Below, piece after piece: positions 4,219 to 62,778 of a stretch of 63,293 bases of DNA (positions within the stretch are counted from its first letter, which is position 1; every line of letters begins with the position of its first letter). The notes beneath the pieces are model-generated. The model was not told the origin of the DNA. It made no database searches and worked only from the letters and a program-made list of their open reading frames with translations. The stretch is from an uncultured Candidatus Saccharibacteria bacterium (GTDB taxonomy: Bacteria > Patescibacteriota > Minisyncoccia > Phycocordibacterales > UBA9973). A program made the translations under genes and the position numbers. The stretch is taken from NCBI GenBank assembly GCA_964354985.1, contig CAYHBR010000004.1, positions 1-63,293 of the forward strand. Reading direction: 5' to 3'.

Positions 4219-4225
4219 CAATATA

Positions 4226-4573
4226 ATGATAGATCCCAAAGATTTCATAAAAATATCACTTCTGTCTCTCCTTTTTATTGGAATATTTGGTTATACATAT
4301 TTTCGGAGTCGAGATGCTATTTGGGGTACAACTATTACCGCTTCGGTTTCTGACGGCGCAGTCCTAAGTTCAAAATTATTAAATCTTACTGGCAATGCAC
4401 CACACACGTCGCTCTTTACGGTAAATAACAAAGAGCTCCTGCTCGATAAAAATGGTAATTTTGTCGATACATTGCTGTTACAAGACGGCTATAATATACT
4501 TACACTAGAAGCGAGCGACAAATTTGGCAGAGTGAAAAGCAAAGTTATACATCTCTTTATTAAATCTTTATAA
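4226..4573 (+). CDS. small membrane-anchored hypothetical protein
   Basis: In-frame ATG at 4226, just after the ftsK stop, inside the long ORF 3767..4573. MIDPKDFIKISLLSLLFIGIFGY is a TM anchor, followed by a beta-rich domain. Confidence 0.5.
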   Translation: MIDPKDFIKISLLSLLFIGIFGYTYFRSRDAIWGTTITASVSDGAVLSSKLLNLTGNAPHTSLFTVNNKELLLDKNGNFVDTLLLQDGYNILTLEASDKFGRVKSKVIHLFIKSL

Positions 4574-4634
4574 GAATTTCATCTCTGTGGTATAAAATAC
4601 CTGCAGAGATTTAGTAATTAATTTCCAATAATTT

Positions 4635-5693
4635 ATGGCAAAAAAAGTAAAAGAACCAAAAGCACACGGCGGAGCAGTCGAAGACGCAATCAAGTCCATC
4701 CTAACCAAATTTGGTGAAGGCTCTATTATGAAGCTCGGAGACGCACCGAAGGTCGCGATAAATGCTATCCCGACTGGCTCGATTGGTCTTGATATCGCTC
4801 TTGGTGTCGGAGGACTACCACGAGGACGCATCGTTGAAATATTTGGACCAGAGTCATCTGGAAAGACTACTCTCGCCCTGCACGTCGTCGCCGAAGCCCA
4901 AAAGCTCGGTGGTGTATGTGCCTATATAGACGCAGAACACGCAATGGATCCTGAATACGCACAAAACCTAGGCGTAAATATCGCAGAATTACTTATCTCC
5001 CAACCAGACACAGGCGAACAAGGCCTTGAAATAGTTGAGTCACTTGTCCGAACTTGTAAAATAGATGTCATCGTTATCGACTCCGTCGCCGCACTTACTC
5101 CAAAAGACGAAATCGAAGGCGATATGGGACAACAACATATGGGTAAACAAGCTCGCCTTATGTCCCAAGCTCTCCGCAAACTTACGGCTATTGTTGCCAA
5201 GTCAAACACTGTTGTTATTTTCATCAACCAGATCCGTATGCAGATCGGTGTGATGTTCGGCAACCCAGAAACCACTCCAGGAGGAAAAGCATTAAAGTTT
5301 TATACTTCTGTGCGACTCGACATACGTCGCATTGCTCAGATTAAAAAAGGTGAAGAAGTTGTTGGCTCACGCACTCGCGTCAAAGTTGTCAAAAACAAGG
5401 TTGCCGCGCCGTTTAAACAAACTGAGTTCGACATAATATACGGCGAAGGTATTTCGCTCGAAGGTGAAATAATGGCTCTTGGTGAAAAGCTCGGCATAAT
5501 CGAAAAAAGTGGTGCTTCTTACACTTACCTTCCACCAGACGAGAAAGACAAGAAAGCCGAGAAAATCCCCCTCGCTCGCGGTTATGACGCAACGCGTCAA
5601 GCACTTCGCGAAAATCCAAAACTCCGCGACCAGATTTTGAAAGTAATAAAAAAGCGAATGAAAGAAGTTGTTTCCGAGAGTAGTGGTGAATAA
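4635..5693 (+). CDS. recA: recombinase RecA
   Basis: [11 protein letters not shown], Walker [10 protein letters not shown] and IDSVAAL are textbook RecA motifs. Confidence 0.97.
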
Positions 5694-5719
5694 ATAAGTT
5701 TATAGTTTATAATATATTT

Positions 5720-6208
5720 ATGGACGGATTAATTATAAAAATTAGTTGGGAATATTTCCTTGGAATACTGGGTGTATTAGTTATGCTTGCATGGTATTCT
5801 GGTAGCCGATTTTCTAAAATTGAAACACTGATCGACTCTGTTAATGAAAAAGTTGGCACTTTGTGGAAAGACAGATTTGCACCGAATAGTTCTCCTAGGC
5901 AATTAAACTCAGTTGGCATTAATATACTTGATGACAGCGGTATAAAAAATATCATTGATTCAAATAAGGTAATACTACTAGAAGCAGTTAGACAAAAGAA
6001 ACCGAAAAATGCCTACGATGCAGAGCAAGAAATCTTAAAGACACTCATGGAACTGCCTGTGATTTGTCCTGAAACCGTAGACAAACTTAAAGACGGGGCT
6101 TTTAAAACTGGCTCCGACTTGGGTTCTTTGCTCTTTGTTGGAAGTATATATCTTAGGAATTTAATCTTTAAAGACCTTGGTTTCAATTTGGATGATATAG
6201 ACAAGTAA
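5720..6208 (+). CDS. hypothetical membrane-anchored protein
   Basis: 162-aa ORF with an N-terminal TM helix (FLGILGVLVMLAWY). No recognisable family. Confidence 0.45.
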   Translation: MDGLIIKISWEYFLGILGVLVMLAWYSGSRFSKIETLIDSVNEKVGTLWKDRFAPNSSPRQLNSVGINILDDSGIKNIIDSNKVILLEAVRQKKPKNAYDAEQEILKTLMELPVICPETVDKLKDGAFKTGSDLGSLLFVGSIYLRNLIFKDLGFNLDDIDK

Positions 6209-6281
6209 TATACAGGTTGATTTTTTACAGTAACTTGACTTATACTGGAATAAGATGGTATAATAAAGAAAAATATCAATT

Positions 6282-6827
6282 ATGTTATTTACAAAAATAA
6301 AAAGCGAAATGAGCCCATCGTTCATTAGAGTGTTTGGTAATTATTTTGAACACACAATCAAGCCAGACTACGGAACAATGCTCCGTATGCAAGACTATGA
6401 GACAATTTATACGAAAAACCGTAGTAGTCTCAGGTGGGAGCCGGGACGACACAAATTGTTCGAATTTGGTCCCTATTCTTATCCAAGATGTTCATGCATT
6501 ATTGATTCTTTCAAAAATCATACAGAAAGAAGGAAATACTGCATTAGTATTATAGAGAAAGAATCAGGAAATACCCCTATTCTTGAATACTCAAAGAATA
6601 AACTCTTTCACGAAAGAATTGAGGCGTCTATTAGATACTCAATGTTATTTTTAAGTGATGTTGAGAATATCAAACCACTACTTAATAAGGCATTATTAAG
6701 TTACGATATTGATAACAATGGTAGAATTGATTTCTACCAGAAAAGTAATCAGCAACGTATCATGGTCGCTGAGGCTATCAATCTTTTATCATTAGCTATC
6801 ATCGAACACGAACTTACACAGTTCTAA
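6282..6827 (+). CDS. hypothetical protein
   Basis: 181-aa ORF followed by a strong terminator. No recognisable family. Confidence 0.45.
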   Translation: MLFTKIKSEMSPSFIRVFGNYFEHTIKPDYGTMLRMQDYETIYTKNRSSLRWEPGRHKLFEFGPYSYPRCSCIIDSFKNHTERRKYCISIIEKESGNTPILEYSKNKLFHERIEASIRYSMLFLSDVENIKPLLNKALLSYDIDNNGRIDFYQKSNQQRIMVAEAINLLSLAIIEHELTQF

Positions 6828-43382: not shown

Positions 43383-44378
43383 TTATGAAGATTTGGAAAT
43401 AAGGTTCAAAATAAGTTTAACGATTTTGTCTTTATCGCTCGGATTGCTTTCCGCAACAAGAACCGTGACAGCAGTGAGAGCAGACGGAGTCATTTTTTTG
43501 ATATTGAGAATTCCCTCTTGTTGAAGTAGCCAAACAAAAGCAAAAGCACCCGAGCGTTTGTTGCCGTCTGTGTAAGGATGATTTTTAACCATAAAATACA
43601 AAAGGTGCGCAGCCTTTTCTTCGACTGTCGGATAAAGTTCTTTGCCACCAAATGATTGCATGACATTGCCGACTATGCCCGAAACATTTCCGGCACTTCT
43701 TTCGTTGCCGAAAATATCAGTTGCCTCACCTTTTTCAATCAGAGTTTTGCGAAGCTCAAACAAATCTTTTGAAATTTTATCTGAAGTAAGTCCGACTTTC
43801 TTTTTCGTGAGCTTGGCTTTCGGCAAAAGCTCTTGGTCGTACGCATCGAGCGACAGCCAAGTGTCGGCAAAAAGCGAAATAAGCTCTACGGCATCTTTTG
43901 GACTAACAGCCGAACCAATTGGTAAAAGTTTTTTTACTTCATCGACAATACCAAGAAAATGAGTGTAATTTTTGGCAATTTGTTTTTTGTTCACAACAAA
44001 GCCGTCGACAATATAGCTACGGAGGGTTTTTGTGGCCCAAATACGGAAGCTTGTTCCCATTTTTGAATTTACTCGATAGCCAACTGCAATAATAGCGTCT
44101 AAGTTGTAAAATTTAATATTTCTTTCAACTTGCCTGTTTCCTTCAATTTGAACTTGTAATGATTCCTTACAAGTTGCTTTTATCTCCAACTCTTTGTCTT
44201 TAAAAATATTATTCAAGTGAAGTGTCACGTTTTGAGGAGTAACCTCAAATAACTGGGCAATCTGCGCCTGTGTTGCCCAAAAAGTCTCGCGCGTAAAGTC
44301 ACCACGCAGTTCAATAGCTCCGTTTTTGGCTTGGTAAATAATTACGTTTTTATTTTGATTCAACTGCTTCTTTTTCAT
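43383..44378 (-). CDS. Fic/Doc-family protein with an N-terminal RhuM-like DNA-binding domain
   Basis: The N-terminus (WATQAQIAQLFEVTPQNVTLHLNNIFKDKEL...FYNLDAIIAVGYRVNSKMGTSFRIWATKTL) is paralogous to 45173..46207. The C-terminus carries the Doc-type motif HPYTDGNKRSG. ATG at 44378. Confidence 0.75.
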   Translation of the reverse strand: MKKKQLNQNKNVIIYQAKNGAIELRGDFTRETFWATQAQIAQLFEVTPQNVTLHLNNIFKDKELEIKATCKESLQVQIEGNRQVERNIKFYNLDAIIAVGYRVNSKMGTSFRIWATKTLRSYIVDGFVVNKKQIAKNYTHFLGIVDEVKKLLPIGSAVSPKDAVELISLFADTWLSLDAYDQELLPKAKLTKKKVGLTSDKISKDLFELRKTLIEKGEATDIFGNERSAGNVSGIVGNVMQSFGGKELYPTVEEKAAHLLYFMVKNHPYTDGNKRSGAFAFVWLLQQEGILNIKKMTPSALTAVTVLVAESNPSDKDKIVKLILNLISKSS

Positions 44379-44422
44379 GTTGAGATATTGTACTCTTTTT
44401 ATTTTTGAAGACAAATATCTAA

Positions 44423-44455
44423 GCAAAACAAAACCCGCATGAAGCGGGTTTTTGC
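44423..44455 (-). terminator. intrinsic terminator
   Basis: gcaaaacaaaacccgc-atgaa-gcgggtttttgc. It is nearly identical to the hairpin at 46256-46289. Confidence 0.8.
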
Positions 44456-44473
44456 AATATTAATACTTATTCA

Positions 44474-44980
44474 TTAAGAGTTTCTAGACCACCAATCAAA
44501 AATCAAAAAGCGGTGGTGACAAATTATGTGAGTACCAGTGCCTAGACTTCCTCCCTCAGAATAAACAGACGTACATCTCATCCTTGCTGACGGATTATTA
44601 GTTACAACCACTCCACCCGATGCCAATATATCAGTAGCATAAGCAATCATTTTTTTAGAAAGCTCTACTGAACCTTTTGGAATGCTTGAAAAAAGTAAGC
44701 ACGAGCCATCTTCTGCCAAAACACCCCATTCAAAAATTCCTTGCTTATTTAATACTTTACATTTTTCTGACTCAGACATAGGAGGGAATTTTACTTTTAG
44801 ATCTGGGATAATACCATCAAAATAAATAGTAGGGTTACTATTTAAAGCTACCTTACTACTCAAAGCCACCGCCCCAGCATTTTCTGTTTTGGCTGGAGTC
44901 TTAAATTTGTAACCGATAACACCTCCGACGACAATACCCAAGATAACAAGCACTACTAATGTTGTCTTTTTATTATTCAT
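44474..44980 (-). CDS. membrane-anchored hypothetical protein
   Basis: 168 aa with an N-terminal TM (TTLVVLVILGIVVGGVIGY). Confidence 0.5.
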   Translation of the reverse strand: MNNKKTTLVVLVILGIVVGGVIGYKFKTPAKTENAGAVALSSKVALNSNPTIYFDGIIPDLKVKFPPMSESEKCKVLNKQGIFEWGVLAEDGSCLLFSSIPKGSVELSKKMIAYATDILASGGVVVTNNPSARMRCTSVYSEGGSLGTGTHIICHHRFLIFDWWSRNS

Positions 44981-44995
44981 AATGCCTAAAGTGTA

Positions 44996-45005
44996 CCCCC
45001 CCCCC
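44996..45005. repeat. C10/G10 homopolymer tract
   Basis: Ten consecutive C (plus strand), 16 nt upstream of the ATG of 44474..44980 (minus strand). It lies in the divergent gap facing the RhuM gene. Confidence 0.95.
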
Positions 45006-45172
45006 GATATGTATCGTCAAGAGAAGTTATGCACAGGGCGATTATTACTAAATATAAGTATTGGAGAAACGAGTTAATAAATTTTATAATTATTAATACT
45101 GAATAGAGCAAAATTTTCGCATTGTCTTTTATTAAAAAACCAAGTAACATTGCCAATATAGACAGAAGAAAT

Positions 45173-46207
45173 ATGGATAAAAATAACTTGGGACAAAAAA
45201 ATACTACTGCCCAATTCCTCATATTCACTACCGAAACAGGAGAGCCGAAAATCGAGGTTCGTATTGAGGGCGAAATGGTATGGCTGAGCCAGAAGCTCAT
45301 GGCAGAGCTTTTTGATGTGGACATTCGCACTATTAGCGAACATCTACAAAATATCTTTAAAAGCCGGGAATTGATCGAAGATTCAGCTGTCCGGAATTTC
45401 CGGATAGTTCAAAATGAGGGGAAAAGAGAGGTTTCAAGGGAAATTGAGCACTACAACCTTGACGCAGTTATTGCTGTGGGTTATAGGGTAAACTCCAAGA
45501 GAGCCACACATTTCCGTATTTGGGCAACCCATGTCCTACGTGATTTTATAATAAAAGGGTTTGCACTTGATGATGAACGCCTCAAGCAAGGTAAAAAATT
45601 ATTTAATGTTGATTACTTCCGAGAGTTGCTCGAACGAGTTCGATCAATCCGCTCGAGCGAACGCCGTATCTATCAGCAGATTACCGACATCTTTGCCGAA
45701 TGCAGTATTGACTACGACCCTGATTCTCGTATCACGCATGACTTTTACGCGATGGTTCAAAATAAATTTCACTTCGCTATCACAGGCAAAACTGCGCCTG
45801 AAATAATCCATAGCAAGGCAGATGCAACATTGCCGAATATAGGTCTCTCGACATGGAAGAAATCCCCTACTGGCAGAATACTCCAATCCGACGTCACTAT
45901 CGCCAAGAACTATTTGGAAGAAAAAGACATCAAACAACTCGAAAGGACGGTTACGGGATTTTTCGACTATATTGAAGGCCTTATAGAACGAAGCAATACA
46001 TTTACTATGAAAGAATTTGCCGCGAGCGTTGATAAATTCCTGACTTTTAATGAATACGAGGTTCTTAATGGGAAAGGCCTGATATCGAAAGCTGACGCTG
46101 ATGAAAAGGCGATTTCAGAATACAGAGAATTCAATAAGCACCAGAAGATCGAATCGGACTTCGACAAAGAAGTTAAGAAACTTATTGACGAGAATAAGCC
46201 TGAATAA
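45173..46207 (+). CDS. RhuM-family protein
   Basis: VWLSQKLMAELFDVDIRTISEHLQNIFKSREL...HYNLDAVIAVGYRVNSKRATHFRIWATHVLRDFIIKGF...YFRELLERVRSIRSSERRIYQQITDIF. ATG at 45173 is preferred to the TTG at 45122. Confidence 0.8.
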   Translation: MDKNNLGQKNTTAQFLIFTTETGEPKIEVRIEGEMVWLSQKLMAELFDVDIRTISEHLQNIFKSRELIEDSAVRNFRIVQNEGKREVSREIEHYNLDAVIAVGYRVNSKRATHFRIWATHVLRDFIIKGFALDDERLKQGKKLFNVDYFRELLERVRSIRSSERRIYQQITDIFAECSIDYDPDSRITHDFYAMVQNKFHFAITGKTAPEIIHSKADATLPNIGLSTWKKSPTGRILQSDVTIAKNYLEEKDIKQLERTVTGFFDYIEGLIERSNTFTMKEFAASVDKFLTFNEYEVLNGKGLISKADADEKAISEYREFNKHQKIESDFDKEVKKLIDENKPE

Positions 46208-46255
46208 TTTATCTCAATTATTTTGCCTCAGTAGATTAATGTGGCGAGATTGTGC

Positions 46256-50336: not shown

Positions 50337-51005
50337 ATGAGAATATTAATAATAGAAGATGACAAAGAGATAAGAACAGCACTTGCTTCACATCTCGAAT
50401 CTGTGTGTTTTGCAGTTGATACCACCGGAGACGGAGCAGATGGATCTTTTTTAGCAAGGACAAATGACTACGACGTGGTAGTCCTTGACTACATACTTCC
50501 AAATAAAGATGGCCTGCGTATTTGTCACGAAATTCGTGAAAGTGGTAAGAATATGCCAATTATTTTAACTTCTGTAAGAAATGAAATATGCGACAAAGTT
50601 GAGTTATTAAACTCTGGCGCTGACGACTACGTCACAAAACCTTATTCCCTAGACGAAATACTGGCTCGTATTAATGCAATGATTCGGAGACCTAAAAAAG
50701 TCGATTCACCGCTTATGTATATTTCAAATATTACGATAGACGCAAATAAACAAAAAGTAACAAAAGGTAATAGAGAAATTTATCTTACCAGAAAAGAATA
50801 TTCACTACTTGAATATCTGGCTCGTAACGAAGGGCGAGTAGTCACGAGAGGAACTATTATGGAACATGTTTGGAATATGGAAAGTGACCCTTTTTCAAAC
50901 ACAATAGAGGCTCATGTTTTCAACTTGAGAAAAAAGATTAGGGGTGGTAAAAATGAACTTATTCGAACAATACCTGGTCGTGGATATATGCTAGAGACAA
51001 AATAG
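50337..51005 (+). CDS. OmpR/PhoB-family response regulator
   Basis: MRILIIEDD, VVVLDYILP (phosphoacceptor Asp), a conserved Lys in DDYVTKP, and a winged-helix output domain (TRKEYSLLEYLARNEGRVVTR...IRTIPGRGY). Confidence 0.93.
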   Translation: MRILIIEDDKEIRTALASHLESVCFAVDTTGDGADGSFLARTNDYDVVVLDYILPNKDGLRICHEIRESGKNMPIILTSVRNEICDKVELLNSGADDYVTKPYSLDEILARINAMIRRPKKVDSPLMYISNITIDANKQKVTKGNREIYLTRKEYSLLEYLARNEGRVVTRGTIMEHVWNMESDPFSNTIEAHVFNLRKKIRGGKNELIRTIPGRGYMLETK

Positions 51006-51063
51006 TTTGTAATATTTATAATAAAATAATTTTTATTTTATAAAAAATTTATGAGGACTTAAT

Positions 51064-51135
51064 ATGGCTTTGAGATACTTTTCTTGGAGCAGCCACCATG
51101 TTGGTCGAGGTAGTGCTTCGTTAAAAATAATTTAA
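51064..51135 (+). CDS. candidate small ORF 1 (23 aa)
   Basis: ATG preceded by GAGGA with a 6-nt spacer. Sequence MALRYFSWSSHHVGRGSASLKII*. It shares the 14-nt start context ttaatATGgcttt with sORF2. Confidence 0.35.
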   Translation: MALRYFSWSSHHVGRGSASLKII

Positions 51136-51142
51136 GATTAAT

Positions 51143-51250
51143 ATGGCTTTAATCATAGAGAAAATGCTCAACAGCAAGGAATCAAGATCCGAAAAAGAAG
51201 TTCGGAATCTTTCGGTAAATGCCGGAGAGTTTGAGCCCTGGTGGAGTTAG
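51143..51250 (+). CDS. candidate small ORF 2 (35 aa), possible signalling-peptide/RiPP precursor
   Basis: MALIIEKMLNSKESRSEKEVRNLSVNAGEFEPWWS*. It has a charged leader-like N-terminus and a Trp-Trp near the C-terminus. It ends 30 nt before the kinase ATG. Confidence 0.4.
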   Translation: MALIIEKMLNSKESRSEKEVRNLSVNAGEFEPWWS

Positions 51251-51279
51251 TCAGAAAAAAAAATATACGAAAAGAAATA

Positions 51280-52842
51280 ATGAGCACTAGAAAACTGAGC
51301 ACAAAATTACTCGTCACAACCTGCCAAGGGTGGTACAGAAATTGTGCTCATTATTTCTATGTTGCACTTCTTAAACCAATATCAGAGAGCGAAGACAATA
51401 ACAGAGGAGAACGGATACTTACGCTCATTTTGCTTTTTATCTTTACCCTGACTGCAATACTAGGAACTGGACTCATTATTCAAAAGATTAGTCTAGGGAA
51501 CAACTACCATGGTGTACCAATTTTATTATTTACTATAATTCTCACATTCTACGCTATTCTAATTTTAATTTCGCGTAAAGGTTACTATCGCACTGCAGGA
51601 TACATATTTATATTAGTATTTTTTACGATAACCTTTTACGGCAGTATTCAGTGGGGAGCAAGTATGCCTATGGGTCTTCTCGCTTATGGATTAGTCGTTA
51701 CTATGGCAAGTATAATAATCAGCAGTCAATTTGGCTTTATTGTCGCAATTTTTTCTTGCTTTGCAATTTTAGGTGTCGGACTAAACGAATCTAGCGCAGG
51801 AGCGCTTCCTACATGGAAACTTGAGGCAATAGAGAAGAAAGATGTCTTTGGCTATATCGTAATGATTTTTCTCACTGCGCTTCTCTCCCGAATATCTAAC
51901 AAAGAAATGGAGAAGTCGCTTGTAAGAGCACGCATATCCGAGCAAGCGCTTAAAGAAGAGCGAGACAACCTCGAAATAATTGTCGAAGTGAGGACCAAGG
52001 CTTTGCGCGAATCCGAAAGAGAACGCCTGCGAGAACTTTATAGATTTGCAGAATTTGGCAAACTCTCTGGTGGTATTTTCCATGACCTACTCAGCCCACT
52101 TACAGCTGTATCACTTTCTGTTGCTAATCTGGACAGACAAAACAGACTACGCAAAGAAAATAAACTTAATATTGAAAATAAGTTAAATAGTGGAATGGAA
52201 CAAGACGACGGGAGTAGATTTAATAATGAAAATGAAATAACAACTGATGGGTCAGAAGTTACTGAGTCTATCAAAACTGCCGTCGCAGCAACCAAACGAA
52301 TGGAGCAATTTATGCTTACTATTCGAAAACAAATAAAATCAGATAATCAAAAATACCTATTCTCTTTCAACGAAGAAATAGAAGACGCTATCGAGCTCGT
52401 TCGTTTTCGTGCCCAAAAAGCAAATGTCTCTGTCCATTTTGAAGCAACAGAAAATATCCAGATTTTCGGGAATCCACTCAAGTGCAACCAAGTGATAACC
52501 AACCTCATCAATAATGCTATCGACGCTTATGGAACTAATGGAAATGGGGCAATTTTTATCGAACTCAAAAAACTTACGGAGAAAATAACTTGTAGCTTTT
52601 CAGACAATGCTCTCGGTATACCACCTGAAATTATGGCAAAGATATTCACTCCTTTTTTCACAACCAAGGAAAGCGGTATCGGCCTTGGTCTCTCAACAAG
52701 TAAGGACATCATTGAAGAAAATTTCGGCGGGATTATTTTATATGAAAGCATTCTTGGCAAAGGAACGACTTTTACAATTAGCTTACCTCTGCAAATACAT
52801 GAACCTAAAACTGAAAAACAGCATAACCAAATGTCTACTTGA
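51280..52842 (+). CDS. sensor histidine kinase with ~6 N-terminal transmembrane helices
   Basis: H-box FGKLSGGIFHDLLSPLTAV, N-box NLINNAIDAY and G-box GIGLGLS. The membrane-embedded sensor has no large external domain. ATG at 51280 is preferred over the GTG at 51241, which overlaps sORF2. Confidence 0.9.
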   Translation: MSTRKLSTKLLVTTCQGWYRNCAHYFYVALLKPISESEDNNRGERILTLILLFIFTLTAILGTGLIIQKISLGNNYHGVPILLFTIILTFYAILILISRKGYYRTAGYIFILVFFTITFYGSIQWGASMPMGLLAYGLVVTMASIIISSQFGFIVAIFSCFAILGVGLNESSAGALPTWKLEAIEKKDVFGYIVMIFLTALLSRISNKEMEKSLVRARISEQALKEERDNLEIIVEVRTKALRESERERLRELYRFAEFGKLSGGIFHDLLSPLTAVSLSVANLDRQNRLRKENKLNIENKLNSGMEQDDGSRFNNENEITTDGSEVTESIKTAVAATKRMEQFMLTIRKQIKSDNQKYLFSFNEEIEDAIELVRFRAQKANVSVHFEATENIQIFGNPLKCNQVITNLINNAIDAYGTNGNGAIFIELKKLTEKITCSFSDNALGIPPEIMAKIFTPFFTTKESGIGLGLSTSKDIIEENFGGIILYESILGKGTTFTISLPLQIHEPKTEKQHNQMST

Positions 52843-54865
52843 TGGATGGAAGTTTATTCAATCAAAACAACAACCCAACGGTAAATGGTGCGGAATATCT
52901 TTCACTAGCGATGGAAAATGGGTTGCTTCAAAAACAGCATTCACTACTTCTCTCATTCTCACCTCACTACGGCCACTTTTTGAATATCCAGTAATAGATC
53001 GAAAATCTTTAAAGCAAGTTGTGGAAAATGCTGTCGAGTACCTCATTACTGAAAGTGAGGAAAAGTATACGACTTGGAACTACTGGGAAAGAACAGAGCC
53101 AAGACGCGATAAGATTCCGGCTGACATGGATGACACATCTCTTGCATTAGCAGCTATTAAAATATGGAGTCCAAAAAAAATTGGTGGAAAGGAACTTGCT
53201 AATGTTGTGCATTCATTATTTTCCACAGAAACAACAGAAGGTGGTCCGTACAATACCTGGATTACTGATTTTAAAAATGACATGCGTTTTAATGATTGCG
53301 ATATTGCAGTTAATGCCAATATTGCTTTTATGCTTTCACTCATCGGGATAAATGTACCGAACTTAACAAAGTTATTTGAACAACAAGTAAACGATGGGTC
53401 ATTTAAATTGAAAAATATTTCCAAATACTATAAGTCACCTATTGTTACCCTTTATTTTATCGCTCGAGCATATCAAGGAGATAAGCACCAAATTTTTATA
53501 GATGAAATTTTAAAACTACGAATTACTACTGGTGACTGGGGAACGCCAATGCATACAGCTCTAGCTCTTTCGGCTCTGCACTATTTAGGCCAAGACATTA
53601 CAATCGAAACAAAAGCACTGGGTTATATAGTCGTTTCTGCACAAGGAGGTTATTTTAAAAAAGAGGCCTTCTATTTTGAAGGCGGTGACAAAATAAATAT
53701 GTGGTACCACGGCAGTGATACACTCACGACAAGTTTTTGTATTGAAGCACTGTGCTGCGCTACTGTATCCAAAACAATAAAAACAAAAGATGGTTCTGAA
53801 AAAATTTCTGATAAAATAATTAGCAACCAGGAAGTGTGCAAATTTGAGAACGAGAGCAAAACTGTTGCTCGAAATTTTCTCGGCCGATCGAAATCACTAT
53901 CTAAATATTTCGAAAAAAGTGCTAAAGTATATCTAGCAAAGGTTTATTCTCATCATTGGGTCAAAGAGAGTATTCTTATGCCATTTTTCTTTGCAGACGC
54001 TTTTACCGAAATCGGGAACCGACGTAACAAAAAACAATTTGGCTTAAACGAAGCGAGTTTACACAAACTTTCATATGCCAATTTGTGTGGATGGATAGGA
54101 TATTCAGTGCTTGATGAAATAATAGACGGCGAATCACCTGTTTCTCTTATCCCATTCGCCAATTTCTGCTTAAGAGAAATGAATACATTGTATGGGGAAA
54201 TCTTTTCTGAACAAAGCCATAAAATAATTGTGAGTATACTAGAAGAAACAGACATCGCGTACGCGGGTGAAAACACCCGCCGAATGACAAAGAAGGGTGA
54301 CTCTTTTTTACTTGAGACTTTTTTAAAAGAAGCAGTTTTGCGGAAGTCGGTTTTAGGAAAGTCGGTTGAATATACTTACGACATAAACAGTTCTAGTAAA
54401 TCGATAGGTCAATGCATAGCTGGACTTGGTGTTCTTGAGTTACTCAGTGATACTGATTTTAAAATACCCCAAATACAGCAAGCGTTCATTTTGTTTTACA
54501 GAAATTACCTTGAGGCTAAACAGGACAGCGACGACGCCGAGGACCTACTCGAAGACCTTGGGCGTGGACATATTAGTAAAGTCGGAGCTCTTACTCTTAC
54601 TGCTTTTGTAAAAAAATATCCAAGTAAAAAATTACTAAGCATAGAACAAGACAAAGATACCTTACTTGATATTTTTTGGAATGATGTTTTTCCAAATTTA
54701 TATGAAGAAATATCAATATCACTTAGGTGCTCCGAGCAAGATATTTTGAAAATTCCCCTTAATAATACCGATTATTTTCTTTCTCTTATTCGAATCGCCC
54801 AAAGTAATATCGACAAAACAAAGAGCGAGAGGAAACTGGTTCAAGATTTTCTTAAAGCTTACTGA
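52799..54865 (+). CDS. fusion protein: N-terminal terpene-cyclase/prenyltransferase-type alpha/alpha toroid (DxDDT motif) plus C-terminal polyprenyl-synthase/ComQ-like alpha-helical domain
   Basis: N-terminal half: QW-like repeats QQPNGKW, QVNDGSF and TTGDWG, and IPADMDDTSLALAAI (the class II cyclase DxDDTA-type motif). C-terminal half: YSVLDEIIDGE, then about 140 aa later YLEAKQDSDDAEDLLED, which fits the FQxxDDxxD spacing of trans-prenyl synthases. The start at ATG 52799 overlaps the kinase by 44 nt. Confidence 0.55.
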   Translation: MNLKLKNSITKCLLDGWKFIQSKQQPNGKWCGISFTSDGKWVASKTAFTTSLILTSLRPLFEYPVIDRKSLKQVVENAVEYLITESEEKYTTWNYWERTEPRRDKIPADMDDTSLALAAIKIWSPKKIGGKELANVVHSLFSTETTEGGPYNTWITDFKNDMRFNDCDIAVNANIAFMLSLIGINVPNLTKLFEQQVNDGSFKLKNISKYYKSPIVTLYFIARAYQGDKHQIFIDEILKLRITTGDWGTPMHTALALSALHYLGQDITIETKALGYIVVSAQGGYFKKEAFYFEGGDKINMWYHGSDTLTTSFCIEALCCATVSKTIKTKDGSEKISDKIISNQEVCKFENESKTVARNFLGRSKSLSKYFEKSAKVYLAKVYSHHWVKESILMPFFFADAFTEIGNRRNKKQFGLNEASLHKLSYANLCGWIGYSVLDEIIDGESPVSLIPFANFCLREMNTLYGEIFSEQSHKIIVSILEETDIAYAGENTRRMTKKGDSFLLETFLKEAVLRKSVLGKSVEYTYDINSSSKSIGQCIAGLGVLELLSDTDFKIPQIQQAFILFYRNYLEAKQDSDDAEDLLEDLGRGHISKVGALTLTAFVKKYPSKKLLSIEQDKDTLLDIFWNDVFPNLYEEISISLRCSEQDILKIPLNNTDYFLSLIRIAQSNIDKTKSERKLVQDFLKAY

Positions 54866-55934
54866 GATTTAATTTAAAATGTGCAACTAATTTTAGCCAA
54901 ATTTCTTTGTGTTTACTGGACATCTCTATTTTTTCAAGAATCACTTCTGCTTTTTTAAGATGCTCAGCAATTGCCATACGCTCACTTAGTAGTGAACCTG
55001 ACAAAGTGAATAATTCTCTCACTCGGCATATATCGTTAGTATCGAGTGGTTGACCTCGGTAAACCGAGTATACTGCCTTTTGTCCTGCTGTAGAATGATT
55101 ATCAAAATGCAAAGACAAATGCGTTGGTAAATCGGCTGTGATATCTGACCCAAGCGACTTTCCCAACACAGCTTCGCTCGCCATTAGGTCAGACAAATCA
55201 TCTAGTCTTTGAAAAGCATGGCCGAGATGGTGTCCGAGTTTTTGATAATACTCAGTCTTTGTTTCAAAAGAAACTAGCTCTGGCTGATTTTTAACTCGAG
55301 AAACAGACTTATCTTTGGATTGATATACTGGGTGCCCTTCAACAGCCAAAGCAAGTCCAAGTAACGCCGGGTATACAAAAGTGTAACGCGCAGTTTTGAG
55401 CTCAATAGATGTGCTGAGAATACTTTCAGTAATATCTCTCCGTTTAACGAGTGAGGTGTCTATCATTTGTCCAATATTGGTCTCTTCGGCTAGTTTCAAA
55501 AAGATTGTCCGGGGAACTTTGTTGGAAATGTAATCAGGAGAATCAGTGCCGTTAATACTTTGTATTGCCCAAATTAGACATTGATTGCCAGCAAGCAAAG
55601 CCTGGTTGAGACCAAAGCGCGCACTTAGTGTTTCTACGCCATGTCGTTTATTTGAATTATCTAAAATGTCATCGTGAATAAGAGCAAATAATTGGAAAAG
55701 TTCAAGAGCAAAAAGTACTGGTAATATTGACTGCTTATCTGTACTTACTTCGCTTTTATAAGCCAAATTGCATATATAAGGACGTAAGCGCTTGCCGTCT
55801 CGAGCAAGCATAATAAGTTGTTCTCCGACAATTGAAAAATCCGGATAATGCACAACAACACTATCTACGCATTTTTTTAAATAAACCAAAAACAGTGGGT
55901 CAAAATACTTTTTAAATATAATTAATTGTTCCAT
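54852..55934 (-). CDS. polyprenyl diphosphate synthase (trans-IPPS family)
   Basis: FARM is LIHDDILDNSNKRHG and SARM is GHAFQRLDDLSDL. There is a 14-nt tail-to-tail overlap with the fusion gene. ATG (MEQLI) at 55934. Confidence 0.85.
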   Translation of the reverse strand: MEQLIIFKKYFDPLFLVYLKKCVDSVVVHYPDFSIVGEQLIMLARDGKRLRPYICNLAYKSEVSTDKQSILPVLFALELFQLFALIHDDILDNSNKRHGVETLSARFGLNQALLAGNQCLIWAIQSINGTDSPDYISNKVPRTIFLKLAEETNIGQMIDTSLVKRRDITESILSTSIELKTARYTFVYPALLGLALAVEGHPVYQSKDKSVSRVKNQPELVSFETKTEYYQKLGHHLGHAFQRLDDLSDLMASEAVLGKSLGSDITADLPTHLSLHFDNHSTAGQKAVYSVYRGQPLDTNDICRVRELFTLSGSLLSERMAIAEHLKKAEVILEKIEMSSKHKEIWLKLVAHFKLNLSKL

Positions 55935-60020: not shown

Positions 60021-60127
60021 AAAAAGCTCCTAGCCAGTATGATAACCTTGCGGTTACCCATACCCCTTTCGGGATATGACACGGTCTGTGCAAACTCTGA
60101 CTAGGAGTTTTTTATCACAGACCGTGT
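60021..60127 (-). ncRNA. structured 5' leader / unclassified RNA element upstream of 58845..59987
   Basis: The minus-strand RNA has a 12-bp helix ACACGGUCUGUG/CACAGACCGUGU and two adjacent GNRA-capped hairpins (CAUAUCCC-GAAA-GGGGUAUG and GGUAACC-GCAA-GGUUAUC). It also has a long-range helix CUCCUAG/CUAGGAG followed by CUUUUU. Both small hairpins have a G-U wobble on the minus strand where the plus strand would have an A-C or C-A mismatch. Confidence 0.5.
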
Positions 60128-60237
60128 TTGCGACCATGCCTTTATTTTTAAAGGTTTAGGTCTTCTATTAAGTTATGTTGCTATTATGCCAAATTTAAGG
60201 TTAAAAAGCTAATTTTTAGAAACATCTAAATTTTCGC

Positions 60238-60271: not shown

Positions 60272-60325
60272 ACAAAGTGCCGTAAGGCTCCGAGAAACCC
60301 CGCCAAAAGCGGGGTTTCGAGTTTC
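60272..60325 (+). ncRNA. candidate ~50-nt small RNA convergent with the MazF-like gene
   Basis: It lies between the promoter above and the hairpin GAAACCCCGC-CAAAA-GCGGGGUUUC (60294-60318), which is followed by GAGUUUCU. It abuts the toxin stop codon (60325-60327). Confidence 0.3.
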
Positions 60326-60714
60326 TAGAGGAAAGATTTGAGTTTTTGTTTCATTTCATCAAAAAGTTCATTCGGAATATCGTAGAGCTTTCTTTTCAAT
60401 CGTTTAACACTAAGTAATTTCATTTGTGCCAAAATAGCGGAAACTTTTTGTTCGTTCGGGTCAGTGTAATTGAAATAAAAGTCAAATTCCTTTTGTTTTG
60501 TTGAAAGTGGAATAACCCAAAACATGTGATTGTTGAACTTTTTAACAATCAAGATAGGACGAGAAAAATTATCACCTGATCCGTTTTGTTCATAACCAAT
60601 ATTTTTTCCTAAACTGGACATCCACACTTCACCCTCTTTTGGAAAACGGTCAGGTTTATTTTTTTCGTCTTCAATTTTCTTTTTCAGTTCATTCCAAGAA
60701 TCAAAATCTTTCAT
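60325..60714 (-). CDS. PemK/MazF-family toxin (endoribonuclease fold), with no recognisable protein antitoxin gene
   Basis: KEGEVWMSSLGKNIGYEQNGSGDNFSRPILIVKK...VIPLSTKQK...SAILAQMKLLSVKRLKRKLYDIPNELFDEMKQKL aligns by eye with EndoA/MazF ([27 protein letters not shown]...SVILLEQIRTIDKQRL...DDEMMDKVDEAL). Confidence 0.78.
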   Translation of the reverse strand: MKDFDSWNELKKKIEDEKNKPDRFPKEGEVWMSSLGKNIGYEQNGSGDNFSRPILIVKKFNNHMFWVIPLSTKQKEFDFYFNYTDPNEQKVSAILAQMKLLSVKRLKRKLYDIPNELFDEMKQKLKSFL

Positions 60715-61040: not shown

Positions 61041-61163
61041 AGAGACGTTCGCGAAATTAGAAATGTGGAGCGGATTTTTGGGAAAAAAATCCGCACTGTG
61101 TGTCCCGACGCTAGCCTTGCTAGCGCGGACGAAATCCCAAAGTTCCCCCCAGCGTATGGAAAC
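61033..61163 (-). repeat. inverted repeat P, left copy (131 bp including the 8-mer; contains the recombinase 5' UTR and start codon)
   Basis: Checked base by base: it is the exact reverse complement of 62569-62699. Confidence 0.97.
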
Positions 61164-62715
61164 AATTCAAACCAAAACTAAATGTGTTCTCTATGCGAGA
61201 AAATCTACTGAAGAGGACGATAAGCAGGTGATGAGCATTGAAGCTCAATTGTTTGAGTTGCAAGAATATGCGCATAGAGAACGCATTGAAATTGTGAAAG
61301 TATTCACAGAAGCGAAAAGCGCAAAGAAGCCCGGGCGAGACGGTTTTGCGAAAATGATAAATTTTATTGAAACCTCAAAAGAACAGATTGGCATACTTTC
61401 TTGGCACCCCGACCGTCTCGCTCGGAATTCTGTTGATGGTGGAAAAATAATTTACTTGGTAGACATCAACAGAATTGCTTCTTTACGCTTTCCGCAGTTT
61501 TGGTTTGAGCCAACTCCGCAAGGCAAATTTATGTTGCAAGTGGCGTTCGGACAAAGTAAATATTTTTCTGACAACCTCGTGGAAAATGTGAAGCGTGGAA
61601 TCCGCCAAAAAATCCGCCGTGGGGAGTGGTTAACGCTCGCACCAATGGGATATGTGAATAACTACAAAACGAAGAATATCGAACCTCATGCTGTGTATTC
61701 CAAAGTTATCAAGCGAGCGTTCACTGCATATGCCACAGGAAAATATACCCTCATCGGACTGGCGGATTTTTTGGCGGATCACGGATTATGTCAGAAAAAA
61801 GGTACGCCACTTGCCAAATGTTCCGTCGTGAAAATGTTGACCAACAGAGCATATCTCGGATTTATCAAACATCGTGGTGAATGGCACGACGGAACATTTG
61901 AGCCGATTCTTTCCCCGACACTGTTTGAAGCAGTACAAAAAATTCTTTCGGCGAGGAGAAGACCATATCATTCTAAACTTCGTCATCCATTTCCATTTAC
62001 CCAGTTTATGACCTGTGGTGAGTGTGGCTGTGCGATTACCGCTCAATATGCCACCAACCGCTATGGTGTCATCTACACTTACTATCGTTGCACCAAAAAG
62101 AACGGAGTGTGCGCACAGCCATACATACAACAAAATCTTCTCGCCGAAAAACTCGAAACACTGCTTCAATCAGTGTCGCTTCCCCGTGAAGAAATTGAAA
62201 ATATGGAAAGGCAAATTTCTGCGTGGGAAAGTGAATCAATTTCTTCACGGGGAAGTGTTGCCCAAAATCTTAAAACTAAACTTTCCGAGACGAAGGAGAA
62301 GCTAGACAAACTGATATCACTGTATCTCGATGGCGACATTGAACGCGAAATATATTTGGAACGAAAAGACCTTCTCCTTCGTCAGAAAGCAAAGGCAGAG
62401 GAAAGTTTTAGAGATTTTGGACAACAGGGAAAGAATCGGCTCGAACCCTTGCGGAGTTTCGTTTTGTCCTTAAGAGAAGCCATGGAATTAGAAAAAACTT
62501 CCAATCATCTCGAATGGAAGAAGTTTTTCCAAAGTATCGGCTCTAACCCCTCTCTCAAGGACAAAACGGTTTCCATACGCTGGGGGGAACTTTGGGATTT
62601 CGTCCGCGCTAGCAAGGCTAGCGTCGGGACACACAGTGCGGATTTTTTTCCCAAAAATCCGCTCCACATTTCTAATTTCGCGAACGTCTCTCTTTGTGCC
62701 CAGGAGAGGACTTGA
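61156..62715 (+). CDS. large serine recombinase
   Basis: METIQTKTKCVLYARKSTEEDDKQVMSIEAQ contains the catalytic Ser in YARKST. Also present: a resolvase domain (GILSWHPDRLARN), a recombinase domain, a zinc ribbon CGECGCAITAQ...YYRCTKKNGVC and a coiled-coil tail. ATG at 61156 is preferred to the upstream start at 61063. The last ~44 codons lie in repeat P, and the stop (62713-62715) lies antisense inside tRNA-Leu. Confidence 0.9.
   Translation: METIQTKTKCVLYARKSTEEDDKQVMSIEAQLFELQEYAHRERIEIVKVFTEAKSAKKPGRDGFAKMINFIETSKEQIGILSWHPDRLARNSVDGGKIIYLVDINRIASLRFPQFWFEPTPQGKFMLQVAFGQSKYFSDNLVENVKRGIRQKIRRGEWLTLAPMGYVNNYKTKNIEPHAVYSKVIKRAFTAYATGKYTLIGLADFLADHGLCQKKGTPLAKCSVVKMLTNRAYLGFIKHRGEWHDGTFEPILSPTLFEAVQKILSARRRPYHSKLRHPFPFTQFMTCGECGCAITAQYATNRYGVIYTYYRCTKKNGVCAQPYIQQNLLAEKLETLLQSVSLPREEIENMERQISAWESESISSRGSVAQNLKTKLSETKEKLDKLISLYLDGDIEREIYLERKDLLLRQKAKAEESFRDFGQQGKNRLEPLRSFVLSLREAMELEKTSNHLEWKKFFQSIGSNPSLKDKTVSIRWGELWDFVRASKASVGTHSADFFPKNPLHISNFANVSLCAQERT
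62569..62699 (+). repeat. inverted repeat P, right copy
   Basis: Exact reverse complement of 61033-61163. It ends with ctttgtgc, whose last 3 nt are the 3' end of tRNA-Leu. Confidence 0.97.
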
Positions 62716-62778
62716 ACCTCCACGGATTGCTCCACACGAACCTCAATCGTGCGTGGTTACCAGTTACACCACCTGGGC
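62697..62778 (-). tRNA. trnL: tRNA-Leu (anticodon GAG), type II with long variable arm, no encoded CCA
   Basis: Hand-folded. Acceptor GCCCAGG/CCUGGGC plus A73. 3-bp D stem GUG/CAC. Anticodon stem CACGA/UCGUG with loop UUGAGGU. Long variable arm. T arm GGAGG-UUCAAGU-CCUCU. Confidence 0.9.

Follow-up and report, generated by a model that had tools for sequence, protein, structure and literature searches.

In a contig of an uncultured Candidatus Saccharibacteria bacterium (assembly GCA_964354985.1, contig CAYHBR010000004.1), a stretch of 63,293 nucleotides (hereafter, the window, deposited in ENA as contig ERZ4201063 NODE_387; all coordinates count from its first letter) contains a gap of 274 nt between the genes for an OmpR-type response regulator (stop at 51005) and a sensor histidine kinase (ATG at 51280). 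An earlier note on this DNA, made from the sequence alone, pointed out the gap and described in it two small open reading frames (sORFs), and both are indeed present as open frames, sORF1 of 23 and sORF2 of 35 amino acids (aa), with the translations MALRYFSWSSHHVGRGSASLKII and MALIIEKMLNSKESRSEKEVRNLSVNAGEFEPWWS, respectively. Comparative analysis identifies sORF2 as a real, conserved protein-coding gene that belongs to a large peptide family restricted to Patescibacteria, and finds this gene genomically locked to the regulator, the six-helix kinase and a protein of 688 aa (hereafter, X688) encoded next to the kinase. The gap is best explained as the compact control-and-signal region of a five-gene module. 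From the sequences and the predicted structures, we consider it probable that the product of sORF2 is a ComX-like peptide that is made, by terpenylation of a Trp, by X688 and is sensed by the adjacent kinase.

sORF2 is predicted as a gene in the source contig annotation. When the conservation check proposed in the earlier note was run on the loci of relatives (contigs encoding kinase homologues, retrieved by kinase similarity), syntenic homologues of sORF2 were found. Where the kinases are 55–58% identical, an ORF of 34–35 aa occupies the place of sORF2 (MSSVLTKMLTNKSAREEKEVKNLSLNAGEFLPWWS, MATILEKILTDKDARSLETVRDISLEAGEFEPWWG, MANIIENILTNEDVRQKADIERLSLSEGEFEPWW, MAKIIEKILSSKEVRNEEAVRNLSLNAGEFEPWWS), an ORF of the same type lies directly upstream of the kinase also in distant loci (kinases 33–39% identical), and, altogether, a syntenic ORF of 32–40 aa is present in 23 of the 23 related loci for which the sequence is available at this site. 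Among six of the loci with kinases of 55–58% identity, the proportion of nonsynonymous differences is low (pN of 0.19–0.36), against a pS of 0.65–0.95, i.e. saturated synonymous sites. A hidden Markov model (HMM) of the peptide, scanned through all six frames, produces one match per peptide-bearing locus, just upstream of the kinase, and a single match in the whole window. Another check proposed in the earlier note, the search for sORFs of the PWW type beside kinases with multiple transmembrane helices, uncovered the peptide family: a profile built from 12 members and compared with 1.84 billion representative proteins retrieved 294 clusters at E ≤ 1e-3, nearly all of them 34–40 aa long and aligned end to end. 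sORF2 has no Pfam match at E ≤ 0.01 and no NCBIfam match at E ≤ 1, and the members of the family are annotated as ‘hypothetical protein' in the source databases. The family is also under-annotated because many of its genes are missing from the annotations; in two NCBI assemblies, for instance, the gene is present but uncalled (L040:4866-4973 and L043:4480-4587).

The conservation of the peptide, calculated for 132 members, is distributed unevenly along its length. Four alignment positions are invariant, namely, M1, L9, R15 and one Trp. Residues 1–16 are conserved, with the pattern M-[KN]-[KE]-[LI]-[IL]-x-[KE]-[IV]-L-T-[DN]-K-x-[AV]-R-[NS] and the leader consensus MxxLIxKxLTxKxxRN, and residues 17–31 are variable, with the lowest information content. 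The Trp is found in 132 of the 132 members and is followed by only 1–4 residues in 120 of these; it is preceded by Pro in 84% of the members when counted by alignment column (100 contain the PW dipeptide), and this Pro-Trp corresponds to P32-W33 in the window peptide. None of the 132 members contains Cys. The leader-core layout that the earlier note ascribed to sORF2 is thereby borne out, with a conserved leader, a variable core and a functionally important aromatic C-terminus, although two details require amendment. The C-terminus had been described as Trp-rich; the Trp is indeed invariant, but the conserved feature is a single Pro-Trp, and the WW doublet of the window peptide, shared by 12 of the 132 members, is a feature of one clade. 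Similarly, what was taken for a charged, helical N-terminus is not merely a charged helix but the conserved N-terminal part of 16 residues.

The position of the peptide gene beside a kinase with multiple membrane helices, which the earlier note had singled out, proves meaningful. All the loci examined have the peptide gene between the genes for the OmpR-type regulator and the six-helix kinase; the regulator, always encoded upstream of the peptide, is 75–78% identical in close relatives and 40–57% identical in distant loci. By tblastn, the gene that directly follows the kinase encodes a homologue of X688 in each peptide-bearing locus with enough sequence on that side, and each locus has one peptide gene in the 2 kb upstream of X688. 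Four related kinase loci (L022, L029, L032 and L033) lack the peptide, according to the six-frame HMM scan, and lack X688 as well. Three family members from outside the kinase-seeded loci (P0132, P0197 and P0165) are found, again, in the order regulator, peptide, kinase and a protein of ~650 aa. In the window, the start of X688 overlaps the 3' end of the kinase gene by 44 nt, and the two genes are merged into one ORF of ~1010–1019 codons in three contigs, which come from two independent studies (L019:300-3356 and L024:~3477-6512 from JGI, and L045:6159-9218 from ENA, the last annotated as one gene for 1019 aa). Clustering of the ORFs from 19 loci yields only four recurrent families, namely, the regulator, the kinase, X688 and a polyprenyl synthase. 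The synthase accompanies the module in 6 of the 19 loci and does so in three ways, being encoded downstream and convergent, downstream and co-directional, or upstream.

The kinase contains six hydrophobic helices in residues 49–206 with almost no extracytoplasmic loop, as judged by a hydropathy scan, and the only domain detected with Pfam is HATPase_c (PF02518); HisKA is weak in the homologues. There are ~100 homologues in Patescibacteria with 27–58% identity, many of which match the AgrC-type HATPase_c_5, and a scan of species-representative genomes returned only unrelated kinases. The GTG at 51241, which the earlier note entertained as an alternative kinase start, is rejected on the strength of the homologue starts (in 12 homologues with 49–58% identity, the start falls on the position of ATG 51280, and the N-termini are of the MS..STK type) and the conserved RNA stem around this ATG, described below. 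In one contig (L048:1281-2722), the kinase is called as two genes, a membrane part of 183 aa and a catalytic part of 259 aa, which represent either a genuine split sensor or a frameshift.

The AlphaFold2 model of X688 (predicted local distance difference test score, pLDDT, of 87) consists of two domains, a cyclase domain (residues 1–325) and a domain with the prenyl synthase fold (residues 350–688). In a Foldseek search, the first domain matches drimenol synthase (E = 1e-10), MstE (E = 1e-7) and a monodomain squalene-hopene cyclase, and when a profile of 27 X688 homologues is compared with the PDB, it aligns with drimenol synthases in their class II cyclase domain (E = 4e-15). The class II catalytic motif, P107-x-D109-x-D111-D112-T113 (DMDDT at 109–113), is invariant among the 27 homologues, and the DxDDT motif is present in L046 and L048 too. 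The Foldseek matches of the second domain are hexaprenyl, heptaprenyl and geranylgeranyl diphosphate synthases. This domain has a first Asp-rich motif (FARM), LDEIID at 438–443, with D439 through D443 marking its invariant aspartates, and a second Asp-rich motif (SARM), QDSDDAED at 575–582, with Q575, D578, D579 and D582 invariant in the same 27 homologues. The basic isopentenyl-diphosphate site appears to be lost in X688 because, in a weak, non-significant hhalign alignment, its LLPY stands opposite the (K)RLRPY of the neighbouring synthase. The latter, a protein of 360 aa with GKRLRP, a FARM (DDILD at 88) and a SARM (DDLSD at 245), is the likely supplier of the prenyl donor. With the predicted model as the main guide, we infer that X688 would act as a transferase.

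The same enzymes can be fitted to a different scheme, in which the unmodified peptide is an accessory subunit or modulator of the kinase, and X688 and the synthase serve to produce a distinct cyclic terpenoid lipid, the synthesis of which the system controls or monitors. Consistent with this scheme, the enzymes that the X688 cyclase resembles most, the drimenol and drimenyl diphosphate synthases, act on free farnesyl diphosphate, and the middle of the peptide, which is hydrophobic in many family members, would suit membrane contact. A hydrophilic leader combined with a Pro-Trp near the C-terminus is, however, the layout of a modified precursor rather than that of a membrane helix, and the hydropathy scan detects no hydrophobic stretch in the window peptide. 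Furthermore, a domain with the prenyl synthase fold that apparently lacks the isopentenyl-diphosphate motif and is encoded beside a complete synthase fits a transferase, and every characterized peptide prenyltransferase that resembles the trans type of isoprenyl diphosphate synthase (trans-IDS), namely, ComQ, PalQ and the P domain of ChrPC, acts on Trp (PMC13290415). An accessory role of an unmodified peptide is, in our estimate, quite unlikely.

Comparison with the known systems suggests, as the best reading of the module, that ComQXPA logic is combined here with cyclase-prenyltransferase chemistry of the ChrPC type. The likeness to ComQXPA includes a small precursor gene directly beside the genes for a polytopic kinase and a regulator, a peptide that is conserved at its N-terminus and varies in its C-terminal part, with an essential Trp close to the C-terminus, a modifying enzyme with the prenyl synthase fold, the absence of a dedicated exporter or protease, and the overlap of neighbouring genes (PMC4008528). 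In the 2014 census of these systems, which were found only in Firmicutes, ComQ is a PF00348 protein, ComX has 52–73 aa with a Trp in the last 5–10 residues, ComP is a HisKA_3 kinase with 8–10 helices, and ComA is a GerE-type regulator (PMC4008528). The invariant Trp near the end of the peptide conforms to this description, whereas most of the other features do not. ComX belongs to PF05952, and sORF2, with its 35 aa, has no ComX match in Pfam; ComQ is a single-domain PF00348 protein of ~300 aa encoded beside comX on the same strand, in contrast to the two-domain X688, which lacks PF00348 and carries a class II cyclase domain that is absent from ComQ. The neighbouring PF00348 protein does not correspond to ComQ either, with its complete synthase motifs including GKRLRP, its convergent gene and its linkage in 6 of the 19 loci. 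ComP is a HisKA_3 (PF07730) protein and ComA a LuxR/GerE-type (PF00196) protein, whereas the kinase here has six helices and HATPase_c only, and the regulator is OmpR-type (PF00486); the gene order, regulator–peptide–kinase–enzyme, and the host, Patescibacteria, differ as well. Given that most of the features that define ComQXPA are missing, the module is not a member of this group.

In ChrPC and NctPC, a prenyltransferase is fused to an MstE-like class II cyclase, and the prenyl group is cyclized after its transfer to a Trp of a peptide that is made on the ribosome and modified after translation (RiPP) (Hubrich et al., Chem 2024, as summarized in the 2026 review PMC13290415). X688 would be similar in that a single protein joins a transferase that prenylates Trp to a class II terpene cyclase of the MstE-like, monodomain kind, with the DxDD acid of the cyclase present and a precursor peptide with an invariant Trp encoded next to it; the transferase domain of ChrPC is trans-IDS-like, as the C-terminal domain of X688 would be, and ChrPC and NctPC use C10–C20 donors (PMC13290415). 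This is a likeness of fold and architecture to ChrPC as described in a review (PMC13290415). The review reports no coupling of these two enzymes to a two-component system (PMC13290415), whereas X688 is coupled to, or fused with, a kinase. Unlike ChrPC and NctPC, X688 has the cyclase domain before the transferase domain, and the precursor here forms a new family of 35-aa peptides, distinct from theirs. The ChrPC and NctPC precursors reportedly come from the proteusin, Nif11 and lasso families, and the products are said to be natural products with modest bioactivity.

The remaining comparisons cover parts of the module. In both ComX and PalX, the acceptor Trp is located near or at the C-terminus (PMC13290415). 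PalQ of Paenibacillus alvei is a trans-IDS-derived transferase that selects a Trp at or near the C-terminus of its peptide, and the N-terminal leader domain of PalX enhances the reaction (PMC10853753); the differences are the NHLP-type leader of PalX, the lack of a cyclase domain and of kinase coupling, and the requirement of PalQ for Trp as the last residue (PMC10853753), where 1–4 residues usually follow in the present family. The module resembles the agr system in its four-gene logic (a peptide and a maturase, a polytopic kinase and a regulator), with putative autoactivation, and in the AgrC-type HATPase_c_5 signature of many homologues of the kinase, but agr makes a thiolactone with a membrane protease and employs a LytTR-type regulator, whereas the peptide here has no Cys. 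Drimenyl diphosphate and drimenol synthases, together with MstE, are the best profile and structural matches of residues 1–325 of X688 and have the DxDD(T) motif in common with it; the substrates of these enzymes, however, are free farnesyl diphosphate or prenylated aromatic acids, and the enzymes are not fused to a domain with the prenyl synthase fold of the X688 kind.

The affinity with ChrPC raises the question of whether the peptide yields a natural product of the terpenylated RiPP kind, for example, an antimicrobial or a factor in host interaction, with a two-component system that regulates its production or senses something else, so that the peptide would not be the ligand of the kinase. 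The architecture of the maturase, the same as in the ChrPC/NctPC type by the structural model and Foldseek, is compatible with such a product, and lantibiotic clusters likewise carry two-component systems. The arrangement of the genes points in the other direction: the regulator and kinase genes flank the peptide gene closely on its two sides in all the loci examined, the maturase gene overlaps the kinase gene or is fused to it, and the overall architecture is that of autoinducer systems such as agrBDCA and comQXPA. Moreover, among the 19 loci, no immunity, transporter or protease genes recur around the module. We regard a natural product of this kind as unlikely.

Sequence comparison also places the start codon of the kinase inside a covarying stem. 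The stem comprises 15 perfect base pairs in the window and is retained in nine loci of differing sequence (for example, AUGAGCAC/GUGCUCAU, AUGAGUAC/GUACUCAU and AUGAAUAUU/AAUAUUCAU). Across these nine loci, 84% of the cells are paired compared with 45–56% when the partner is slid, and nine pairs are changed on both sides, a result equalled in 0 of 500 shuffles. The AUG pairs with the CAU codon of the conserved His in the N-terminal xHYFY motif of the kinase. The stem probably keeps translation of the kinase low or couples the kinase to translation of the peptide gene, which ends 29 nt upstream of the kinase ATG (30 nt in the earlier note).

This stem invites a further interpretation of sORF2, as a regulatory upstream ORF or an arrest peptide of the TnaC/SecM type, the translation or stalling of which would open the stem. 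The sequestration of the kinase AUG by a conserved structure agrees with this interpretation, the peptide ORF stops only 1–29 nt upstream of the kinase in many loci, and the conserved Pro-Trp near the stop recalls arrest motifs. In TnaC and SecM, however, the C-terminal ~10–17 residues are the conserved part, whereas here only the Pro-Trp is conserved near the end, and conservation is the highest in residues 1–16 and the lowest in residues 17–31, the segment that would occupy the exit tunnel. Further, both arms of the stem lie 3' of the peptide ORF, the distance from stop to start varies between 1 and 84 nt across the loci, and the co-occurrence with X688 and the kinase-X688 fusions would be left unexplained. 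Regulation by arrest is very unlikely.

Upstream of the peptide gene, two other elements are conserved. The spacer between the regulator and the peptide aligns without gaps over ~40 nt in six loci, and the block within it, AAAAATTTATC-N4-CTTCATGTC-N3-CTG-N2-ATACT, has invariant columns that include AAAA, TTTAT, CTT.AT.T and TG..ATACT; the pattern occurs once in the 63-kb window. This block can be read as a putative promoter with an extended -10 element (TG at 51071-51072 and GATACT at 51074-51079), which places the predicted start of transcription near 51086, and TTTAT-N6-TTAAT (TTnAT repeats with an 11-nt period) could be the binding site of the regulator. A scan with consensus promoters and terminators was uninformative. 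Directly after the regulator stop, there is an A/T-only inverted repeat (51014-51048; 16-nt arms, 88% complementary, with a 3-nt loop), too weak a signal to be called a terminator.

The second element is a GGTCGA box located ~40 nt upstream of the peptide start, often unpaired and just 5' of the closing strand of a covarying stem. Its core, GTCGA, is found 20–70 nt upstream of the peptide ATG in 20 of the 23 loci, against a chance expectation of 4% per locus (binomial P ~1e-25). In the window, the arms of the leader hairpin are GGAGCA ... TGCTTC; the flanks of the box differ in sequence but pair in several loci, with compensatory changes in L025 and L030, and the folding of the leader is significant in 5 of 20 loci (L010, L012, L013, L025 and L030; z of -2.3 to -3.6). 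A general hairpin around the box was considered and rejected and, given that only some of the loci fold significantly, the element is reported as a sequence box with partial structure. The hairpin has no match in Rfam, and no credible Rfam family was found in the gap in scans of the window and of positions 50800-51500. The box could serve in RNA processing, as the binding site of a protein or as an operator. GGTCGA was dropped as a candidate genome-wide signal, with 8 copies in the window compared with 9.8 expected.

Judged by comparison with the relatives, sORF1 is not a gene: with tblastn, none of them has a translated homologue of it at the syntenic site (the best E-value is 0.32, at unrelated positions), whereas in the same comparison, sORF2 is found at the syntenic position with E-values of 4e-15 to 9e-9. 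The earlier note had proposed that sORF1 and sORF2 were tandem small genes that arose by local duplication of a start context, which would imply that both are expressed. There is indeed an exact repeat, TTAATATGGCTTT, that spans both ATGs, although it is 13 nt long rather than 14 and, lying at 51059-51071 and 51138-51150, is displaced by 1–2 nt from the positions initially given; a repeat of at least 13 nt appeared in 47 of 5000 Markov-1 simulations of the gap (~1%), so that it is mildly unusual. The GAGGA 6 nt upstream of the sORF1 ATG is also real (51053-51057). None of this is shared with the relatives, however: the 13-nt repeat is kept in no relative, its first copy aligns without gaps to their promoter/operator block and not to any start codon, the GAGGA aligns with non-conserved columns, the reading frame is not conserved either, and the GAGGA and the repeat are specific to the window. 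The sORF1 ATG is inside the conserved promoter block, upstream of the conserved -10, and the region is retained solely as ungapped nucleotide sequence, i.e. the promoter block plus the GGTCGA hairpin, so that sORF1 overlies conserved non-coding DNA. The existence of two expressed genes that originated by duplication is, accordingly, scarcely believable.

The terpenylated, kinase-sensed peptide can be cast as a sequence of steps. The neighbouring prenyl diphosphate synthase would make a C15–C20 donor. The C-terminal domain of X688, with the trans-IDS fold, the FARM and SARM kept and GKRxRP apparently lost, would bind the N-terminal leader of the peptide and alkylate the invariant Trp33, and the N-terminal class II cyclase would then cyclize the attached prenyl chain with its DxDDT acid. 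The resulting lipopeptide may partition into or across the membrane and be sensed by the loop-less six-helix domain of the kinase, whereupon the phosphorylated regulator would activate the extended -10 promoter of the peptide gene, a positive feedback as in ComQXPA and agr; the start-codon stem would hold kinase synthesis low or couple it to translation of the peptide gene.

Several observations count against this scheme. X688 belongs to no Pfam or NCBIfam family and has no PF00348 match, its C-terminal domain resembles prenyl synthases at the level of fold only, and the hhalign comparison of this domain with the neighbouring synthase is not significant (probability of 1.8%), even though FARM falls on FARM, so that homology to prenyl synthases rests on the predicted fold. 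The motifs of this domain are compatible with a ChrPC-type transferase but do not set one apart, since ordinary synthases also carry the Gln that lies upstream of the SARM, as illustrated by the Q-x-x-DD of the synthase next door (FQRLDDLSD). The window peptide is hydrophilic, and its access to the membrane would require a lipid group. No exporter or protease that might release the mature signal recurs in the module among the 19 loci, and ComX has no dedicated one either. A strict CTTYAT direct repeat, the presumptive regulator box, is present in only 4 of 25 loci (with a background of 1%), which restricts the claim of a regulator box to the close clade and a few other loci. Finally, we infer, rather than observe, the modification, export and sensing of the peptide. 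We nevertheless favour a Trp-terpenylated peptide sensed by the kinase over a RiPP product, an accessory peptide and arrest regulation because of the pattern of leader conservation, the strict co-occurrence of the peptide with X688 and the kinase-X688 fusions.

Table 1. Coordinates of the genes and non-coding elements of the module in the window.
Feature	Position	Strand	Basis
OmpR-type response regulator	50337..51005	+	Receiver PF00072 and Trans_reg_C PF00486 (Pfam)
Conserved promoter block (putative)	51048..51079	+	Ungapped in six related loci; function predicted from sequence
sORF1, open frame, non-gene	51064..51135	+	No translated homologue at the syntenic site
5'-leader hairpin with GGTCGA box at 51103-51108	51086..51119	+	Box kept in 20/23 loci
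sORF2, gene for the 35-aa putative precursor peptide	51143..51250	+	Syntenic homologues, purifying selection, profile family
Start-codon stem, 5' arm	51273..51287	+	Contains kinase ATG 51280; 15-bp perfect complement to 51344-51358
Start-codon stem, 3' arm	51344..51358	+	Within the kinase ORF, codons C-A-H-Y-F
Sensor histidine kinase	51280..52842	+	HATPase_c PF02518 (Pfam); six predicted membrane helices
X688, predicted class II terpene cyclase and trans-prenyl-synthase-fold domain	52799..54865	+	AlphaFold2, Foldseek, profile, motifs
Canonical trans-isoprenyl diphosphate synthase	54852..55934	-	PF00348 (E = 7e-37); NCBIfam IDS families; motifs

Elsewhere in the window, the 514-aa, 174-aa and 380-aa proteins encoded downstream have no Pfam match. 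A full-length LOOT RNA (60041-60162, minus strand; Rfam RF03000, 88 bits compared with a gathering score of 46) is located between the 380-aa protein and a gene for a MazF/PemK-like toxin (60325-60714). Near the end of the contig, the 3' end of a gene for a large serine recombinase (61063-62715, plus strand) overlaps a tRNA-Leu (62696-62778, minus strand), which suggests the boundary of an integrated element. Genes of the Fic/RhuM families occupy ~44300-46210, upstream of recJ and outside the module, and include one for a 344-aa RhuM protein (45173-46207).

Beyond this one locus, a wider generalization is tentative and falls somewhat short of what we would call probable, namely, that Patescibacteria, also known as the Candidate Phyla Radiation (CPR), possess a dedicated, widespread peptide-pheromone system, in which the enzyme that places a cyclized terpene on a Trp near the C-terminus of the 35-aa precursor is a cyclase-prenyltransferase, coupled to the receptor kinase and in some cases fused with it. 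A literature search found no report that links Patescibacteria to such a system, although the genome mining in the ChrPC study might list examples from CPR. The CPR is a major part of bacterial diversity; its members have tiny genomes and usually live on the surface of other cells, and their ways of perceiving each other or a host are almost uncharted. If the generalization is true, the module would give these reduced episymbionts their first defined system of cell-cell, or cell-host-surface, signalling and would be the first case of polycyclic-isoprenoid RiPP chemistry acting as the ligand of a two-component system; it would extend Trp-isoprenyl pheromones beyond Firmicutes and would tie the recently discovered cyclized-terpene peptide chemistry to a biological function. 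The enzyme family of ~650 aa and the peptide family of ~300 clusters are without a name in Pfam and NCBIfam, and their members are listed as hypothetical. The start-codon stem and the GGTCGA box provide clear-cut illustrations of cis-regulation that is conserved in these genomes. A five-part module that devotes ~5 kb of a tiny genome to what would be a lipidated peptide and its receptor would offer a concrete, testable handle on signalling in these bacteria.

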